NCBI GenBank assembly: GCA_021777105.1
Contig: JAIQZQ010000131.1
Span: 5,079-37,078 of the forward strand
Reading direction: 5' to 3'
DNA length: 32,000 nucleotides
From: Candidatus Anammoxibacter sp.
GTDB lineage: Bacteria; Planctomycetota; Brocadiia; Brocadiales; Anammoxibacteraceae
Shown here: positions 5,077 to 19,961 of the stretch, piece after piece
Position numbering within the stretch: the first letter of the stretch is position 1
Layout of the letters: each line of letters opens with the position of its first letter
Made by a program: the position numbers and the translations under genes
Notes under the pieces: model-generated
What the model was told of the DNA's origin: nothing
Database searches by the model: none
What the model saw: only the letters and a program-made list of their open reading frames with translations

Positions 5077-5265
5077 GTATCTCTGCGCCTTAATGAGGAT
5101 TGGTAAAATATCCAGAATCGTGTAATTAAGTTAACATTTTAGAAAGTTAACGGTTTTCTTGTCAAGTTCCAAGTTGAAATTCGTGGTATTTTTGCAAAAA
5201 AGGCAGGGGATTGTTGTAAAACCATAAGTCATAAAACATAGCGGGCCATATGCCATAAACTAATA

Positions 5266-5475
5266 TTATATCTTATCCCAATCCGGGACTCTTTTTTTGG
5301 TTTTTACTTTGTTTAGAACGGAATCAAAGTTTTTGGTTATTTTCTTTTCTTTGCGTTTAAGACCCACTTCCATTAGATATTTGCCAAAAGCGTGAGGATC
5401 ATTGTTAAATCTTTTAAATATCTGGTTACGTGTTTCTCTGATTTCTTCTATAACAGGATCTTTTGCGTATTTCAT
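5266..5475 (-). CDS. Small partner protein of the PIN toxin (putative antitoxin)
   Basis: 69 aa, with a 4-nt overlap with the upstream PIN gene. The N-terminal DPVIEEIRETRNQIFKRFNNDP motif is the pattern I recognise in small proteins encoded immediately downstream of this PIN subfamily. Confidence 0.6.
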   Translation of the reverse strand: MKYAKDPVIEEIRETRNQIFKRFNNDPHAFGKYLMEVGLKRKEKKITKNFDSVLNKVKTKKRVPDWDKI

Positions 5476-5960
5476 ATTCCAGACTCCGTATAATTAGTTA
5501 ATAATTGCCCTGGAGCGCTTAAAATAGGCGTTTCTAAATGCATTCCAGCGTTAATAACGCTCATGTGTTTAAATTTATTTGGATTTGCAAGATGGTTGCA
5601 GTTCCATGTCAGCAAAAAGTCGATGCTGTAATAAGAAGCGTAAGCAAGGTGGTATGCATCGCCGCCGGCTTCATTCGGTAATAGTTTGTTCTTGATATAT
5701 GTCATAACAATATCGTCAATAATAGGCAGATGGTCAAGGTATTCAATATCCTTGATCAACGATATTTTTCTCTTTTGATTTGGGTGTTTGCCTTCTTGTA
5801 GTTCTACACAAACCAGATCGCTGCAAACAAGTTGGTAATATTGGCGATACTGTTTCCACCATAGCTTTGTTAAATTTTGCCATGCAATGGTTTTGACGTC
5901 TGTTCTTGTTTCATAATAGAAACTGGGCACAGACGTTTCAATATAAACAGTTTTTTTCAT
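5472..5960 (-). CDS. PIN-domain protein, VapC-like toxin
   Basis: 162 aa. The N-terminal VYIETSV (acidic residue after beta-1) and C-terminal DFLLTWNCNHLAN are hallmarks of a PIN/VapC-like subfamily (ETS...TWNxKHIAN). It is translationally coupled to a small downstream ORF. Confidence 0.7.
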   Translation of the reverse strand: MKKTVYIETSVPSFYYETRTDVKTIAWQNLTKLWWKQYRQYYQLVCSDLVCVELQEGKHPNQKRKISLIKDIEYLDHLPIIDDIVMTYIKNKLLPNEAGGDAYHLAYASYYSIDFLLTWNCNHLANPNKFKHMSVINAGMHLETPILSAPGQLLTNYTESGI

Positions 5961-6145: not shown

Positions 6146-6273
6146 TTAAATTCAGGAAACAATAATCCATATGCTATAGTCATATATATCAAAGCTTGCC
6201 GTATGCCGTTAAACATATCAAACCATCGGCCATAAGCCGTTAAAAATTGTTACCATCAAACAAATCCATTGTG

Positions 6274-6279
6274 TATAAT
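6274..6279 (+). promoter_or_regulatory. Candidate sigma-70 -10 box (TATAAT) upstream of the Rpn-like gene
   Basis: TATAAT at 6274-6279, with TTACCA (4/6 match to TTGACA) 18 nt upstream at 6250-6255. It lies 138 nt before ATG 6417. Confidence 0.3.
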
Positions 6280-6310: not shown

Positions 6311-6396
6311 TTAAGGAGCCGCGCAATGATAACTTGGTCCAGGAGCGCTTATCTGCATGCCGGCTTTGAACAATCTTCAATCAAAGAACATCTCAA
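6311..6396. repeat. Solo left-half copy of the MITE-like element
   Basis: TTAAGGAGCCGCGCAATGATAACTTGGTCCAG...CTTTGAACAATCTTCAATCAAAGAACATCTCAA aligns with 26760-26845 at roughly 75-80% by eye. Confidence 0.7.
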
Positions 6397-6416
6397 TTTG
6401 GCTAAAACTAATCCTT

Positions 6417-7259
6417 ATGGCAAAAACAATTAATTGGCATAAAATAGTACAGAATATACTTGAACAGCATTTAAGCTTGCTGTCCGGCAAAGTTGTTGCG
6501 GCAGGCAGCCGCGAACATCATAATATGATCAGGGTTGACTTCTTTTGCCATGTTAAAGGGGATATTCCAAAAGAGAAATTAAAACCAATAATGCGGCCTT
6601 TTAATCATCTTAAGGAGAGGAATTTAATAGAATATAAAAGTATGCATGACGTTGTTAATGAAAAAATGTTCAGGCATTATGTAAGCAGGGCCTTATATAT
6701 GGAGACTTGCGAAAAACTGCCGTATCAGGGCAAAACTACGTTAACAATTTTCACTACAAGAAGGCCAACGGCCCTTATTAACAAAAAGCGCTATTCTATT
6801 ACCCCTGTCAACGAATGGAAATATCAAAGCAGATGGATTAAAGATCTTGATGTTTTTATCATTGTTCAAAAAGATATGCGGGGAGTTAAAGGCGGCGAGG
6901 CTTTGGCTCTATTACAAATTCTGGAAGGTGAAAAGGGTAAACAGATAGCGTGTTGGGAAAAGCTGTTTGCCCAGGATTTAAACAATATTGATGTGTTACA
7001 AAATATTGCAAAACAGATTAATAAGGAGAAGATAATGAATTTAGTAGAGGAATTAAAGAAGGAAGGCATAAAGATAGGCGAAAAGAAAGGGGAAAAGAAA
7101 GGCGAAATTAAAACGTTTTTGAGAATATTAAGCCGCAAGTCTCCCGAACTTGCCAAGAAATATGAGAGAAAGATTAAATCATCTATAAAGAAGGGCGAGT
7201 TGGAAAAGGCCGAAGAAGAGATGATAAATGAGATTTATAAAGGAGGCAACGGGAAGTAA
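6417..7259 (+). CDS. Rpn-like putative PD-(D/E)XK nuclease with a DUF4351-like C-terminal module
   Basis: ORF track gives 6357..7259. I prefer ATG 6417 (MAKTINWHK) because 6311-6396 is a copy of the left half of the MITE-like repeat at 26763. A D...ExK candidate is present (IRVDFF ... NLIEYKS). The C-terminus EGIKIGEKKGEKKGEIKTFLRIL resembles the EGxxxGxxxGE + LLxxL tail of Rpn/YhgA-like proteins (compare EGRTEGIAEGFEKGKIE in the gene at 13826). Confidence 0.5.
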   Translation: MAKTINWHKIVQNILEQHLSLLSGKVVAAGSREHHNMIRVDFFCHVKGDIPKEKLKPIMRPFNHLKERNLIEYKSMHDVVNEKMFRHYVSRALYMETCEKLPYQGKTTLTIFTTRRPTALINKKRYSITPVNEWKYQSRWIKDLDVFIIVQKDMRGVKGGEALALLQILEGEKGKQIACWEKLFAQDLNNIDVLQNIAKQINKEKIMNLVEELKKEGIKIGEKKGEKKGEIKTFLRILSRKSPELAKKYERKIKSSIKKGELEKAEEEMINEIYKGGNGK

Positions 7260-7488
7260 TATAAGGAGAAAATAATGAATTTAGTGGAGGAATTAAAGAA
7301 AGAAGGCATAAAGAAAGGCAAACAGGAAGGCGAAATTAAAACGTTTTTGAGAATATTAAAAGATAGGTCTCCGGCTTTGGTCAGGAAATATGAGAGAAAG
7401 ATTAAATCATCTATAAAGACGGGCGAGTTGGAAAAGGTCGAAAAAGAGATGATAAATGAAATTAATAAAGGAGGCAATGGGAAGTAAT
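7021..7488 (+). repeat. Tandem duplication, about 240 bp x 2 (7021-7260 and 7261-7488)
   Basis: Both units begin ATAAGGAGAA(G/A)ATAATGAATTTAGT(A/G)GAGGAATTAAAGAA and end GGGAAGTAAT. They differ by a 12-nt indel and scattered substitutions. Confidence 0.9.
7275..7487 (+). CDS. Free-standing duplicate of the Rpn-like C-terminal module (70 aa)
   Basis: MNLVEELKKEGIKKGKQEGEIKTFLRILKDRSPALVRKYERKIKSSIKTGELEKVEKEMINEINKGGNGK aligns end to end with the last 74 aa of the preceding gene. It is preceded by the same AAGGAG-N6-ATG. Confidence 0.6.
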   Translation: MNLVEELKKEGIKKGKQEGEIKTFLRILKDRSPALVRKYERKIKSSIKTGELEKVEKEMINEINKGGNGK

Positions 7489-7541
7489 CACCCTGGGTAA
7501 CTATTCAGCGTATACTCACATGACTATACACACCCCTAAAT

Positions 7542-7603
7542 CCCCTCTTAAGAGGGGACTTTGTGGAAATAAATCCGATTTAATATCCCCTCTAAAAAGA
7601 GGA
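7542..7603. repeat. Two CCCCTCT-loop-AGAGGGG hairpins (family B) between convergent genes; likely bidirectional terminator region
   Basis: CCCCTCTTAAGAGGGG at 7542-7557 and CCCCTCTAAAAAGAGG at 7587-7602. They lie between the stop at 7487 (+) and the stop at 7628 (-). Related copies are at 27058 and 29576. Confidence 0.55.
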
Positions 7604-7627
7604 GAAATCCGCTCTCCGCATTTTGCT

Positions 7628-10646: not shown

Positions 10647-10757
10647 CCCAATTCCCAATTCCCAATTCCCAATTCCCAATTCCCAATTCCCAATTCCCAA
10701 TTCCCAATTCCCAATTCCCAATTCCCAATTCCCAATTCCCAATTACCAATTACCAAT
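10647..10757. repeat. Heptamer tandem array: CCCAATT x14, then ACCAATT x2
   Basis: Perfect 7-nt periodicity read directly. It explains the artefactual ORF 10439..10756 (GNWELGI repeats). Confidence 0.95.
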
Positions 10758-12260: not shown

Positions 12261-12893
12261 AACCACAGATTGCACAGATAAAAGCAAAAAGCAAAAGCAA
12301 ACCACAGATTTCACAGATAAGAGCAAAAAGCGAACCACAGATTACACAGATTGCACAGATAAAAACAAACTACCGATTTCACAGATAAGAGCAAAAAGCG
12401 TATTAACCACAAATCTGCACAAATCCACACTAAAAAGAGCAAGATCAAAAGCAAACCACAGATTTCACCGATAACACAGATAAAAGCAAAAAGCGAACCA
12501 CAGATTACACAGATTGCACAGATAAAAGCGAACCACAGATTACACAGAAAAAGCAAAAAGCAAAAGCAAACCACAGATTGCACGGATAACACAGATAAAA
12601 ACAAACTACAGATTTCACAGATAAAAGCAAAATCGATGGTAAAAGCAAAAAGCAAAACAAACTGCCGATTACACAGAAAAAGCAAAAAGCGTATTAACCA
12701 CAAATTTGCACAAATCCACACTAAAAAGAGCAAGAGCGAACCACAGATTACACAGATTGCCCCCTCTGGGGATAATTTTCACTAGAGCAGGCAAGCTGCT
12801 CAGTGTTCATTTACATAGATAAAAGCAAAAAGCAAACTACCGATTACACAGATAAAAGCAAACCACAGATTGCACAGATTTCGCAGATAAAAG
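12261..12893. repeat. Degenerate satellite built on ACCACAGATTNCACAGATAAAAGC units
   Basis: Nine exact ACCACAGATT cores at 12261, 12301, 12334, 12455, 12497, 12531, 12569, 12739 and 12861, plus CTACCGATT / CTACAGATT / CCACAAATC variants, separated by AAAAGC-rich spacers. There is also a higher-order repeat: 12391-12443 and 12682-12734 match at 52/53 positions. Confidence 0.9.
12759..12812. repeat. Dispersed ~54-bp repeat (family I), copy 1
   Basis: The reverse complement AAATGAACACTGAGCAGCTTGCCTGCTCTAGTGAAAATTATCCCCAGAGGGGGC matches 24861-24913 at roughly 85% by eye. It contains the hairpin GAGCAG-CTTGC-CTGCTC. Confidence 0.8.
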
Positions 12894-13825: not shown

Positions 13826-14704
13826 TCAGAGATGTTCAATTGTTTTGCTTGGCAAACCGGTTACTTTAGCAATTGTTGTTATGTCAATTCCATTTTGTTT
13901 CATTGCTTTTGCCATTTCTATTTTTCCTTTTTCAAATCCTTCGGCTATCCCTTCTGTTCTCCCTTCCGCTTTTCCGTCTGAAAATGAAGTGTCTATACAA
14001 TTTTTAAGATCGCGGTAGGCTTTAAGGCTCTCTTCGTATTCAGTGTATTCTTCGTCGCTATAATTTGCAATTTCAGCTTGCTCAAAGAGTTTTTTAAACA
14101 CTTTTTCCTGAAGTATGGCGGGTCTTTTGGTTAGATCTTCCAAATTTTTTAGCACAAAAAGCCATTTGTCAAAATGTGTTTCAAGTTCATTTTCTGTTTT
14201 TTGAAATTTTGGCATTTCAAGATAAACATAGGTTAGTTTATCATAAAAGACTTTTTGTGTCTGCTTATCAAAGAGTTGAACTTCATGGTGGAATACTTCT
14301 TTATCATCTTTGTCTTCGTTAAATATAAAATCAAGTATGCCGACTGTATAAACGGATTTTAGCTGAAAATTCCAGTTTCCTTTTGCCGCTTGTTGCTGTA
14401 TTGGGAAAGTTGAGTAATATATGCTTCTATCCTTGAAATAATTTTGTTTTGCTTTTTGTATTTCAACAATAAATTTCTCGCCTTTTTCATTTTCACAGTA
14501 GATGTCGAAAATAGCTTTTCGATCATTTATGGCTCGGCCTAACTGTTCTTTTGATAGATAGCTAATGCTTGTTATTTCACCTTCGTCTTTTCTTAGCAAT
14601 TCATTCAGAAAATCTATCAAAATATCCTTATTTGTCTCTGTTCCAAATAATTTATTAAAACCAAAGCCGGTAAAAGGTATTATATATTTATCCTGAACTC
14701 TCAT
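13826..14704 (-). CDS. Rpn-family recombination-promoting nuclease / putative transposase (PDDEXK_2 type)
   Basis: The N-terminus DKYIIPFTGFGFNKLFG matches the family signature (KYINPFTDFGFKKLFG). The nuclease core is FDIYCENEKGEKFIVEIQKAKQ (D...ExQ/K). The C-terminal tail is EGRTEGIAEGFEKGKIEMAKAMKQNGIDITTIAKVTGL. The ORF-track start at 14716 is a TTG, so ATG 14704 (MRVQDKY) is preferred. Confidence 0.85.
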   Translation of the reverse strand: MRVQDKYIIPFTGFGFNKLFGTETNKDILIDFLNELLRKDEGEITSISYLSKEQLGRAINDRKAIFDIYCENEKGEKFIVEIQKAKQNYFKDRSIYYSTFPIQQQAAKGNWNFQLKSVYTVGILDFIFNEDKDDKEVFHHEVQLFDKQTQKVFYDKLTYVYLEMPKFQKTENELETHFDKWLFVLKNLEDLTKRPAILQEKVFKKLFEQAEIANYSDEEYTEYEESLKAYRDLKNCIDTSFSDGKAEGRTEGIAEGFEKGKIEMAKAMKQNGIDITTIAKVTGLPSKTIEHL

Positions 14705-14806
14705 GTTATGTTCCAAGTTAAATTAAGCGATTATGTTGTAATTTTTAAAGCATAATTGTACACAAAGTGGTTATTTGATGGTAGCAATTTTTAAAGCAAG
14801 GCGAAA

Positions 14807-18104: not shown

Positions 18105-19869
18105 TTGTAGATGCCAATTTAGAGCTCTGGTGGTTTACTTTGCATTGCACAGTGTTTAAAAAATTGTAATTAGCGGTTAATAGGGAGAGCGTTGACTGTT
18201 GTTTAAAATCTACAAGTCCTTGCATGCCGTAAAAGCCCGCGCTTCTGGCAACAAGACACTGCTCGTCGGTAACGTTTACGGTGTAACCGAGCTTTTTAAC
18301 CTCACTTTCCATTAGTGTTGTCAAGTTTGCAATGCCTTTAAAATCTACTTTGTTCAGGGTTAATTCAAGTTTTGGCCAGGTTGTGGGATCTTGTGTTAGC
18401 ATAAATTCATATCTCAAACCTTGTTGAACAAAGTCTTTTCCAAACGTGTAGTTAAAATTTTCATTGGGATTCCACCATTTTGTGCCGGGCAGAGGCACTG
18501 CCGGATTGATCATGATTGAATCAGGTTGTATGTTGTCTGCCTTAAGTGTGTTTAGAAACTCTAAATTATCTTTTAAAACCTGATCCATGGTTATATCTGT
18601 TGAGCTTGTGGGGCATGGGTAGATAAAGCTCAGGCCTACGTCAATGTGTTTGCCTGTGTTGTTGGATGCGGCCTTGATTGCCTTTACGGTGTGGTAGACG
18701 TCGTATATTGTGAGGCCTTTGTTCATTGTCTGGTTAAGGATAGTGTTGTTTGCGGATTCAACGCCCATGAACACGGCTTTGAGGCCGGAGTTTATTATGG
18801 TTTCGTAGTGGGGTATTAATGAGTCTGATTTATCTTTGGCTCCTTTTTCAGGTCTGACAAACATGCTGTACTCTATGTTCAGGCGTTCAAAAATTATCCT
18901 TTGGGCAAGTCGCGATGCCAGTGTCATGGGTGTGGTTGAGCCGGCAAAGCGGAAAAGGGCGGTTTGTTGATGTTTGATCATATGTTTGATTTCGTTAATT
19001 GTTTTATACTCGTCCCTTTTTCGATACGGGCCTGTTATTTGTGGGTGGGTGCAGAAGTTGCATTTGCCGTAATGACAGCCGGATGACTCGAGGATGACGC
19101 CGATCTTAAGTTTGTGGTCTATGTTCTCATAAAGGGGGGCGGGCTTTTCGTTTAAGGGGACTCTGACTGTTTGTGTCTGTTGTATGGAGCCTGCGGCCCT
19201 GTATATGAGGTTGAATATTGCGCCTTGTTCGGCCATGGCGGTTACGCGTTTAACAATGTCGGCTTTTGCGGCGCCGGTTGAGGCCATCTCTTTTGCGAGT
19301 TTGACTATGGTGATAAGGGCGACTTCGCCTTCGGCGTCTATGCAGAAGTCGAATGGGCTGAAGCGCAGGCTCTCTGACTTAAACTGGTTGACCTGGGGGC
19401 CGCCGGCTATTATTAATGTTTGTGGGCTTATTTGTTTGACTTTATGGGCAAGTTTCTCTGAATAGACAAATCGGTTGCCAAGCCAGGTCTTTATGCCCAG
19501 TACTGTGACGTTGCGCTCTTTAACCTTGTTTGCAAGGGCGTTTATATAGCCGGCCATTCGCTGGGCGATGAGACTTGAGAGTTGGTTTTGAAGGGCGTCA
19601 AACCTGGCTGTTAACTCGTCTTTGCCGGATGTGGGGCCGGGATCGGCAAGTTGCATTGCTACTTCGGACAGCTCGGGGGAGATGTCGTTTTGGGTAAATT
19701 CGTTGTAAAACGGGATGTTTGCGGGGTCTTCAATCAATACGCTCAGGCCCGCGTCCTGCGCGGCGCGGTTTAAGACGGCAAGGCCGTTTTCCATAAATGC
19801 GTCGCTTATGGAATATGCTTTGCCCATAAATGAGTTCCATATCATTAGGTCGATGTTTTTGTTTGTCAT
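18091..19869 (-). CDS. Radical-SAM-type protein with a B12-binding-like N-terminal domain and a CX4CX2C motif
   Basis: 592 aa. The Rossmann-like region is VTVLGIKTWLGNRFVYSEKLAHKVKQISPQTLIIAGGPQV. The Cys motif is ESSGCHYGKCNFCTH. VFMGVESANN resembles the rSAM GxES motif region. The gene abuts or overlaps the ketosynthase gene. Confidence 0.7.
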   Translation of the reverse strand: MTNKNIDLMIWNSFMGKAYSISDAFMENGLAVLNRAAQDAGLSVLIEDPANIPFYNEFTQNDISPELSEVAMQLADPGPTSGKDELTARFDALQNQLSSLIAQRMAGYINALANKVKERNVTVLGIKTWLGNRFVYSEKLAHKVKQISPQTLIIAGGPQVNQFKSESLRFSPFDFCIDAEGEVALITIVKLAKEMASTGAAKADIVKRVTAMAEQGAIFNLIYRAAGSIQQTQTVRVPLNEKPAPLYENIDHKLKIGVILESSGCHYGKCNFCTHPQITGPYRKRDEYKTINEIKHMIKHQQTALFRFAGSTTPMTLASRLAQRIIFERLNIEYSMFVRPEKGAKDKSDSLIPHYETIINSGLKAVFMGVESANNTILNQTMNKGLTIYDVYHTVKAIKAASNNTGKHIDVGLSFIYPCPTSSTDITMDQVLKDNLEFLNTLKADNIQPDSIMINPAVPLPGTKWWNPNENFNYTFGKDFVQQGLRYEFMLTQDPTTWPKLELTLNKVDFKGIANLTTLMESEVKKLGYTVNVTDEQCLVARSAGFYGMQGLVDFKQQSTLSLLTANYNFLNTVQCKVNHQSSKLASTNVFN

Positions 19870-19892
19870 TTGTGATTTGTCACTGGTAATTA

Positions 19893-19961
19893 GTAATTTG
19901 TAATTTGTAATTTGTAATTTGTAATTTGTAATTTGTAATTTGTAATTTGTAATTTGTAATT
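19893..19961. repeat. Heptamer tandem array, GTAATTT x9.9
   Basis: Perfect 7-nt periodicity, starting 24 nt upstream of the rSAM start codon (19869). Confidence 0.95.

Follow-up and report, generated by a model that had tools for sequence, protein, structure and literature searches.

Known Rpn systems and the locus in the window

The closest described systems are the rpn genes of Escherichia coli, for which Zhong et al. (PNAS 2023, PMC10400941) reported a long protein (RpnL), a small protein (RpnS) and downstream copies (RpnSs), including their differences in repeat number. The hallmark of RpnS is a series of four-residue repeats, each combining one hydrophobic residue with charged residues or glycine, which begin 8-20 residues past the methionine used for initiation and vary between strains (PMC10400941). 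RpnAS is abolished by mutating K240, E241 and M244 of RpnA, and an extra repeat in RpnCS abolished neutralization unless RpnCL had the same extra repeat (PMC10400941). Separate RpnS copies are found downstream of rpnE (ypaA, renamed rpnESs) and of rpnC, each derived in an event of its own from the gene that precedes it, and DUF4351 is a frequent annotation of standalone RpnS genes (PMC10400941). In E. coli K-12, 12 nucleotides (nt) separate ypaA from the end of rpnE; the copy starts with KERLM, and one KLEG repeat distinguishes it from the rpnE tail. Here we describe a locus of this kind in a 32,000-nt stretch of DNA from Candidatus Anammoxibacter sp. (contig JAIQZQ010000131.1, forward-strand positions 5,079 to 37,078; the whole stretch is hereafter called the window). 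It consists of a long gene (L), a small open reading frame (ORF) inside its 3' end (S) and a copy of S directly downstream (Ss).

We consider it likely that this locus is a divergent Rpn-type system of a toxin with an intragenic antitoxin, the two roles being assigned from the Rpn precedent. The first-pass annotation of this DNA had proposed such an intragenic arrangement, and the proposal is supported by conservation of the internal Shine-Dalgarno (SD) sequence and ATG in 13 loci, the K-E-x-x-M motif, the repeat of four amino acids (aa), matches of relatives to HTH_Rpn_C and TIGR01784, and a PD-(D/E)xK model of the long protein. The features of the locus, in window coordinates, are as follows.

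6417-7259, + strand: long gene L, 280 aa, divergent Rpn-like, with a PD-(D/E)xK-type body (residues 1 to about 200) and a C-terminal tail (ORF, family alignments A1 and A2, AlphaFold2)
6537-6638, + strand: candidate active site, with D41 (6537-6539) on beta2 and E72 (6630-6632) and K74 (6636-6638) on beta3 (A2 conservation, models, hhalign)
7023-7028, + strand: internal SD AAGGAG, spelled by codons K203-E204 and 6 nt ahead of the ATG at 7035 (sequence, conservation in 13 loci)
7035-7259, + strand: intragenic small ORF S, 74 aa, from Met207, in frame with L; putative antitoxin (conservation, K-E-x-x-M spacing, model)
7059-7107, + strand: 12-nt (4-aa) repeat array KKEG-IKIG-EKKG-EKKG, four units, in helix 1 of S and L (Tandem Repeats Finder (TRF), period 12, 4.1 copies)
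7021-7260, + strand: copy 1 of the tandem duplication unit, SD through stop codon plus T (repeat finding, alignment)
7261-7488, + strand: tandem duplication unit, copy 2 (repeat finding, alignment)
7263-7268, + strand: AAGGAG as SD of copy 2, 3 nt beyond the stop of L and S and 6 nt ahead of the ATG at 7275 (sequence)
7275-7487, + strand: standalone small gene Ss, 70 aa, a diverged copy of S with three repeat units and 13 substitutions (ORF; NCBI gene call P0178)

A putative internal start conserved in the nucleotide sequence

The ATG at 7035 is Met207 of the ORF 6417-7259, so that the in-frame internal methionine preceded by AAGGAG at 6 nt, noted in the first-pass annotation, is confirmed in the sequence. 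Met207 is invariant in family alignment A1, and conservation of both E204 and M207 is 90% or higher in a second alignment, A2, which holds 26 divergent representatives of the L family. At the DNA level we compared 13 L-family loci, all of which have an AGGAG-like motif 6 nt upstream of the conserved ATG. The codons at positions -4 and -3 before the methionine read xAG-GAG (once CAA-GAG and once AAG-GGG); the residue at -4 varies between K, E, Q and R and the nucleotides are retained. The K, E and Q codons at these two positions end in G in 23 of 24 cases; in the remainder of these genes the share is 34% (Fisher p=4e-10). Given that synonymous sites are expected to be saturated at 35-60% protein identity, this pattern reflects selection on the nucleotide sequence. 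The same K-E-x-x-M motif, with spacing equal to that in the L family, is found in E. coli RpnA (HKESLM), RpnB (EKEKLM) and RpnE (QKERLM).

A hypervariable repeat array and exchangeable tail modules

The tail begins MNLVEELKKEG and continues, about 9 residues after the methionine, with xxxG units. Members of the L family have between 0 and 9 of these units, and the orthologues P0003 and L014, which are 94.6% identical, differ by exactly one unit; in the window, the tail of L and S has four units and Ss has three. This hypervariable array fits the published RpnS hallmark. In the AlphaFold2 model of L, the tail is formed by a long helix (residues 203-241) followed by two shorter helices.

Behind a common helix-1-plus-repeat segment, the C-terminal module differs between members whose bodies share about 50% identity. 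The module of the window protein ('SPELAKKYE...EEL') is also found in P0002, P0004, P0006 and P0009, HTH_Rpn_C occupies this position in P0003, P0005, P0008 and P0010, and a third type of tail is present in L015. These differences suggest module exchange at the repeat array, and such swapping of tails on bodies of about 50% identity suggests that the array may act as a recombination joint between nuclease bodies.

A tandem duplication from the Shine-Dalgarno sequence to the stop codon

The first-pass annotation reported a 240-base-pair unit at 7021 that is repeated directly at 7261, and repeat finding, ungapped comparison and alignment all agree on it. The first unit begins with ATAAGGAGAAGATAATG (7021) and the second with ATAAGGAGAAAATAATG (7261). 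TRF gives a period of 228 nt, 1.8 copies, 86% matches and a score of 656, and the ungapped identity of the copies is 83% over 208 nt. In the nucleotide alignment the SD and the stop codon are the exact limits of the duplicated unit, and TAAT is found at 7019-7022, 7257-7260 and 7485-7488, a microhomology consistent with microhomology-mediated tandem duplication. Of the 225 positions that can be aligned between the copies, 26 carry substitutions, with 13 amino-acid changes as the result. The only other difference is a single indel of 12 nt, equal to one unit of the internal 12-nt repeat that TRF detects in each copy. Copy 2 had been described as frame-preserving despite an indel and about a dozen substitutions, and its 70-aa ORF is indeed intact. 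The substitutions in Ss are concentrated in two places, the repeat and residues 29-37, where helix 2 starts. Between Ss and S, the ratio of nonsynonymous to synonymous divergence (dN/dS) is 0.40-0.50, with dS of 0.22-0.26.

A survey of homologous loci, which had been proposed as a check, recovered one independent case. At the P0010 locus, represented in two independent assemblies (L021 and L022), a 58-aa HTH_Rpn_C gene starts 5 nt after the stop of the long gene; it is 76% identical in nucleotides to the tail of its own upstream gene and has four repeats fewer. Its left boundary is different, and it therefore represents an independent duplication event. A downstream tail copy is present in 2 of about 9 assessable L-family loci, and the other assessable loci are without one. 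A search of a large protein collection with the 70-aa Ss sequence returned only the query itself, a result that is uninformative for a word-index search. The tail is present as an independent gene, as had been claimed, although such a gene is not new, having been published as rpnSs (rpnE-ypaA, rpnCSs; PMC10400941). We consider it plausible that Ss is maintained, and both the recurrence of the copy and the E. coli precedent support this.

The long protein and its predicted nuclease fold

NCBI places the start of L at 6357 (300 aa, P0001). The N-termini of homologues favor 6417, the start of the 280-aa version in the first-pass annotation. The family is rare, with 10 proteins in a search of 5.8 billion sequences and 51 representatives among 1.84 billion clusters at 50% identity. 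The A2 representatives show no variation at E33, D41, E72, P117, W134, Q167 and W180. K74 is kept in all but four distant members (P0025, P0031, P0043 and P0053), which carry E in place of K at E-x-K (e.g., 'FELEG' and 'VEIEG'); in these, either the lysine may have migrated or the proteins may be inactive.

The AlphaFold2 model of L, built with A2, has a mean predicted local distance difference test score (pLDDT) of 89.7, with 93-98 in the body, and a predicted template modeling score of 0.78. The modeled core follows the order alpha-beta-beta-beta-alpha-beta; D41 lies on beta2, and beta3 carries E72-x-K74. The D...ExK candidate picked out in the first reading (RVDFF / LIEYKS) falls on residues that are invariant (D41, E72) or mostly conserved (K74), and the predicted body core has the PD-(D/E)xK arrangement. 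The best geometric match of L in a Foldseek comparison with the PDB is EndoMS (probability 0.90, root mean square deviation 4.1 A, 129 columns), and other geometrically sensible matches are NucS, EcoO109I, XisH and the Cap4 nuclease domain. Searches of PDB sequences with the L-family profile and the tail profile gave nothing relevant, and scans of the window proteins with Pfam, NCBIfam and PADLOC gave no meaningful match for L.

Relationship of L to the Rpn families

The comparison of L with Rpn involves relatives, profile comparisons and a second gene of the window.

13826-14716, - strand: classical Rpn gene, TIGR01784 E=2e-35, PF12784 (family scans), 6.3 kb from the L locus

The window L protein gives no match to PF04754 (Transposase_31), PF12784 (PDDEXK_2) or TIGR01784 even at E<=10, and a Pfam scan of all 26 A2 members at the same threshold gave no PDDEXK or Transposase_31 signal. 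TIGR01784 does match 9 of the 26, all below its cutoff of 52.1 bits. In P0025, residues 132-267 align with profile positions 133-272 (E=7.7e-13), collinear position for position, and the match enters the body about 70 residues upstream of the internal translation initiation site (iTIS). Several L relatives also carry precomputed matches to PF27070 (HTH_Rpn_C), a domain that accompanies PF12784 on genuine Rpn proteins.

When the whole L family was compared with a mixed Rpn alignment using hhalign, the probability was 91.6% (E=8e-7, 243 columns), a score anchored in the tail, with D and E-x-K in register: 'RVDFFC' of L pairs with 'IFDIYC' of Rpn, and 'IEYKS' with 'IE.Q(K/S)'. The candidate active-site residues of L line up in hhalign with 'FDIYC' and 'IEHQS' of Rpn. 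The weak local alignments obtained with bodies only pair the same motifs as does a positive control, in which E. coli Transposase_31-type Rpn bodies were compared with those of the window PDDEXK_2-type using shallow profiles. The first-pass annotation noted a likeness between the L tail and the tail of the Rpn gene at 13826; a likeness is present and weak (tail-only hhalign, E=0.002-0.007). For both window tails the only tail-domain match is DUF4351 (E=0.16-0.17, 12.4 bits compared with a gathering score of 25), the other tails of this type in the L family give no DUF4351 match, and no structural match of the modeled L tail to RpnAS was obtained. Taken from the sequence comparisons, the L family is most likely a very divergent branch of Rpn.

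A model for the locus and the points against it

We propose that L (6417-7259) would be a PD-(D/E)xK-type nuclease-like protein whose C-terminal 74 or so residues form a helical oligomerization tail. Ribosomes would also initiate at the conserved internal SD and ATG (7023-7028 and 7035), producing the tail alone as S, and S would bind the tail of L and keep L inactive, by analogy with RpnS. A tandem duplication bounded by the TAAT microhomology would have copied the SD-to-stop unit into the separate gene Ss (7275-7487), which would later have diverged through the loss of one 4-aa repeat and through substitutions at the repeat and the start of helix 2. From the Rpn precedent we infer nuclease activity and toxicity of L, neutralization by S, a role in phage defense and a function for Ss.

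Several results weigh against this model. The window protein itself stays below the thresholds of all curated Rpn, PDDEXK and DUF4351 models, and its best relative in this respect, P0025, reaches 48.9 bits, short of the TIGR01784 cutoff of 52.1. The window tail is not of the HTH_Rpn_C type and its resemblance to DUF4351 is faint. The body-only profile comparison of L with Rpn gives E of about 0.2-0.6, a negative of little power since the positive control itself reaches only E=0.05. Foldseek found zero PDB matches to L at E<=0.001, and a promoter scan found no internal promoter on the + strand before 7035. The exact locus was found in one assembly only. Two further points concern Ss: its dN/dS is below 1 only at p=0.09, and when neutral drift is simulated at the observed divergence, 10-30% of trials end with an undamaged ATG, ORF, stop and SD.

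Alternative explanations

The last two points lead to the alternative that survives best, namely that the internal start and S are real and the 70-aa gene is a functionless by-product of duplication, drifting and still undisrupted. In addition to the drift simulations and the non-significant dN/dS, it can draw on the small share of assessable loci that have a downstream copy and on the E. coli precedent itself, as ypaA is annotated as a pseudogene in RefSeq. However, the SD hexamer, its 6-nt spacing, the ATG and the stop codon are all intact after a dS of about 0.25, the sole indel is an exact repeat unit, the independent duplication of L021 and L022 is also intact in two assemblies, and the YpaA/RpnESs protein has been detected in E. 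coli (PMC10400941). We therefore give the by-product explanation a modest chance.

If Ss is instead functional, as in the model preferred here, its role is probably not that of a simple extra dose of cognate antitoxin, as repeat number sets the specificity between RpnS and RpnL in E. coli. The first-pass annotation had suggested that the separate gene decouples antitoxin dosage from the nuclease; this is doubtful, given that Ss is one repeat short and that a mismatch of one repeat abolished neutralization in RpnC (PMC10400941). A more speculative option, to which we assign a small chance, is that Ss is a partner of shifted specificity, which might heterodimerize with S, neutralize another Rpn-like allele or, as a donor cassette for recombination, change the repeat number and tail of L and S, with the repeat array as a recombination joint that exchanges antitoxin modules.

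There is a slim chance that the body is an inactive or non-toxic PD-(D/E)xK-like domain and that the system acts in regulation or DNA binding and is not a toxin-antitoxin pair. The annotation of RpnE reads 'inactive recombination-promoting nuclease-like protein', and four distant members of the L family have E in place of K74. The window L, in contrast, has D41, E72 and K74, the residues E33, D41 and E72 are invariant in the family, and homologues of L adjoin Rpn, Phd-antitoxin and Cas4, Cas1 and Cas2 genes.

Internal initiation could also be absent altogether, with Met207 and the K-E pair conserved for protein structure only and a single product made from L. K, E and M do lie at the start of the long modeled helix, as expected under this explanation. 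It nevertheless appears very improbable, for the residue at -4 changes between K, E, Q and R while the nucleotides stay xAG, the excess of G-ending codons is specific to these positions within the same genes, the surviving duplication carried exactly the SD, and the spacing is identical to that of the experimentally verified iTIS of RpnA.

Finally, artefactual duplications consist of identical or nearly identical copies, so that an assembly artefact, which the single assembly with the exact locus might suggest, has a negligible chance given copies that are about 14% diverged, with 26 of 225 aligned positions substituted and a 12-nt indel.

Neighborhood and other features of the window

The L locus is situated in a stretch of low guanine-cytosine (GC) content (35-39%, compared with 43-52% in the flanks), between a minus-strand two-gene cassette and a convergent gene for a GAF/PAS histidine kinase. 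Two features lie upstream of the locus.

5266-5960, - strand: a 162-aa and a 69-aa gene that overlap by 4 nt (5472-5475), in the same low-GC stretch as L (toxin-antitoxin-like layout)
6250-6279, + strand: promoter-like site TTACCA-18-TATAAT, 10 of 12 matches, upstream of the operon (a consensus scan only, with no functional evidence)

The cassette had been read as a PIN toxin pair. No PIN or other family was found in it with Pfam (E<=1), NCBIfam, PADLOC or PDB sequences, and the reading is left with the toxin-antitoxin-like layout.

Between the promoter-like site and L, a 35-codon upstream ORF (6326-6433, + strand) has a strong SD (TAAGGAG, 6312-6318) 7 nt before its ATG at 6326 and stops 17 nt inside the long gene, past the ATG at 6417 and in another frame. 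The ATG at 6417 is without an obvious SD, and translational coupling of the upstream ORF to it is conceivable. Between Ss and the histidine kinase gene are two related palindromic hairpins, at 7533-7566 (CCCCTCTTAAGAGGGG) and 7585-7617 (CCCTCTAAAAAGAGG), and a terminator-like stem.

A transposon reading of L was rejected: no terminal inverted repeats flank the gene, and rpn genes are without conventional transposases according to PMC10400941. Scans for relatives of the locus found none in metagenome contigs and three loci only in genome contigs, A2 being too divergent for pattern scans. At L002:1197-2204 an L homologue is directly beside a Transposase_31-type Rpn gene, and at L003:1109-3649 another is beside a Phd/YefM antitoxin gene followed by Cas4, Cas1 and Cas2. 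Both settings are defense or mobile neighborhoods.

The classical Rpn protein of the window has its nearest counterparts in Beggiatoa, Thiomargarita and Candidatus Venteria. Its gene also has EG-type repeats; no SD with ATG is visible before them, and the nearest candidate ATG (about 13915) follows them, so that any internal start of this gene would be placed differently.

Other repeats in the window are two near-perfect heptanucleotide arrays (CCCAATT, 15.9 copies, 99% matches, at 10647-10757; TTTGTAA, 14.3 copies, 91% matches, at 19862-19961), a tandem repeat of 99 nt in 4.7 copies (33-aa units, at 2072-2539) in the N-terminal part of an HlyD-like gene and a 64-nt repeat in 2 copies (96% matches, at 2731-2858) just upstream of that gene. 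A-rich degenerate repeats with units of about 26-73 nt ('AAAAGCAAACCACAGATTACACAGAT') and an adenine-thymine skew of 0.31 are found at 12442-12632 and 12828-12879 and overlap ORFs that have no family matches. An Rfam scan of the window gave no match.

Significance and comparison with known systems

Because RpnL, RpnS and RpnSs have been described (PMC10400941), the arrangement is already known and brings no new principle. What is new is its occurrence in a rare, divergent clade that goes undetected by curated Rpn models and has at least two tail modules behind the same helix-1-plus-repeat segment. If our reading is correct, the Rpn design of an antitoxin inside the toxin gene, with its internal K-E-x-x-M, its hypervariable dodecamer repeat and its recurrent tail copying, extends to a clade outside the Pfam and NCBIfam models, and model-based surveys of Rpn would miss such genes since these models do not capture them. 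The two natural triplets of L, S and Ss, with unit numbers of 4 versus 3 and of 6 versus 2, could be used to address the question of repeat number and specificity.

In core topology, L resembles EndoMS/NucS, XisH, type II restriction enzymes and the Cap4 nuclease domain, with weak Foldseek matches; these come without significant E-values, a shared tail or an internal start. Standalone DUF4351 (PF14261) proteins are the only domain match of the window tails, although the scores are far below the gathering score. The likeness to classical Rpn proteins (TIGR01784, PF12784) is broader, as it includes overall length, collinear organization, D...E-x-(K/Q) on beta2 and beta3, a helical tail preceded by EG-type repeats, and the collinear matches of L relatives to TIGR01784. 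However, the insertion between D41 and E72 is about 30 residues in L compared with about 14 in classical Rpn, the window L does not score on the family models, and the body-only similarity is not significant. The modeled tail, a long helix followed by two helices, fits the description of the RpnAS crystal structure given by PMC10400941.

The closest counterparts are rpnE-ypaA and rpnC-rpnCSs. The window locus differs from them in that its body is unrecognized by PF04754, PF12784 and TIGR01784, its family is rare (51 representatives), and its tail ends in the helical 'SPELAKKYE...' module instead of HTH_Rpn_C. In common with both, L has an internal K-E-x-x-M with SD and start that would yield the tail, and a hypervariable 4-aa (12-nt) repeat shortly after the internal methionine. 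In common with rpnE-ypaA, the tail copy follows closely downstream (15 nt in the window, 12 nt in E. coli), starts at the SD-coding K-E (KEKIM in the window) and differs from the tail of its upstream gene by one repeat.

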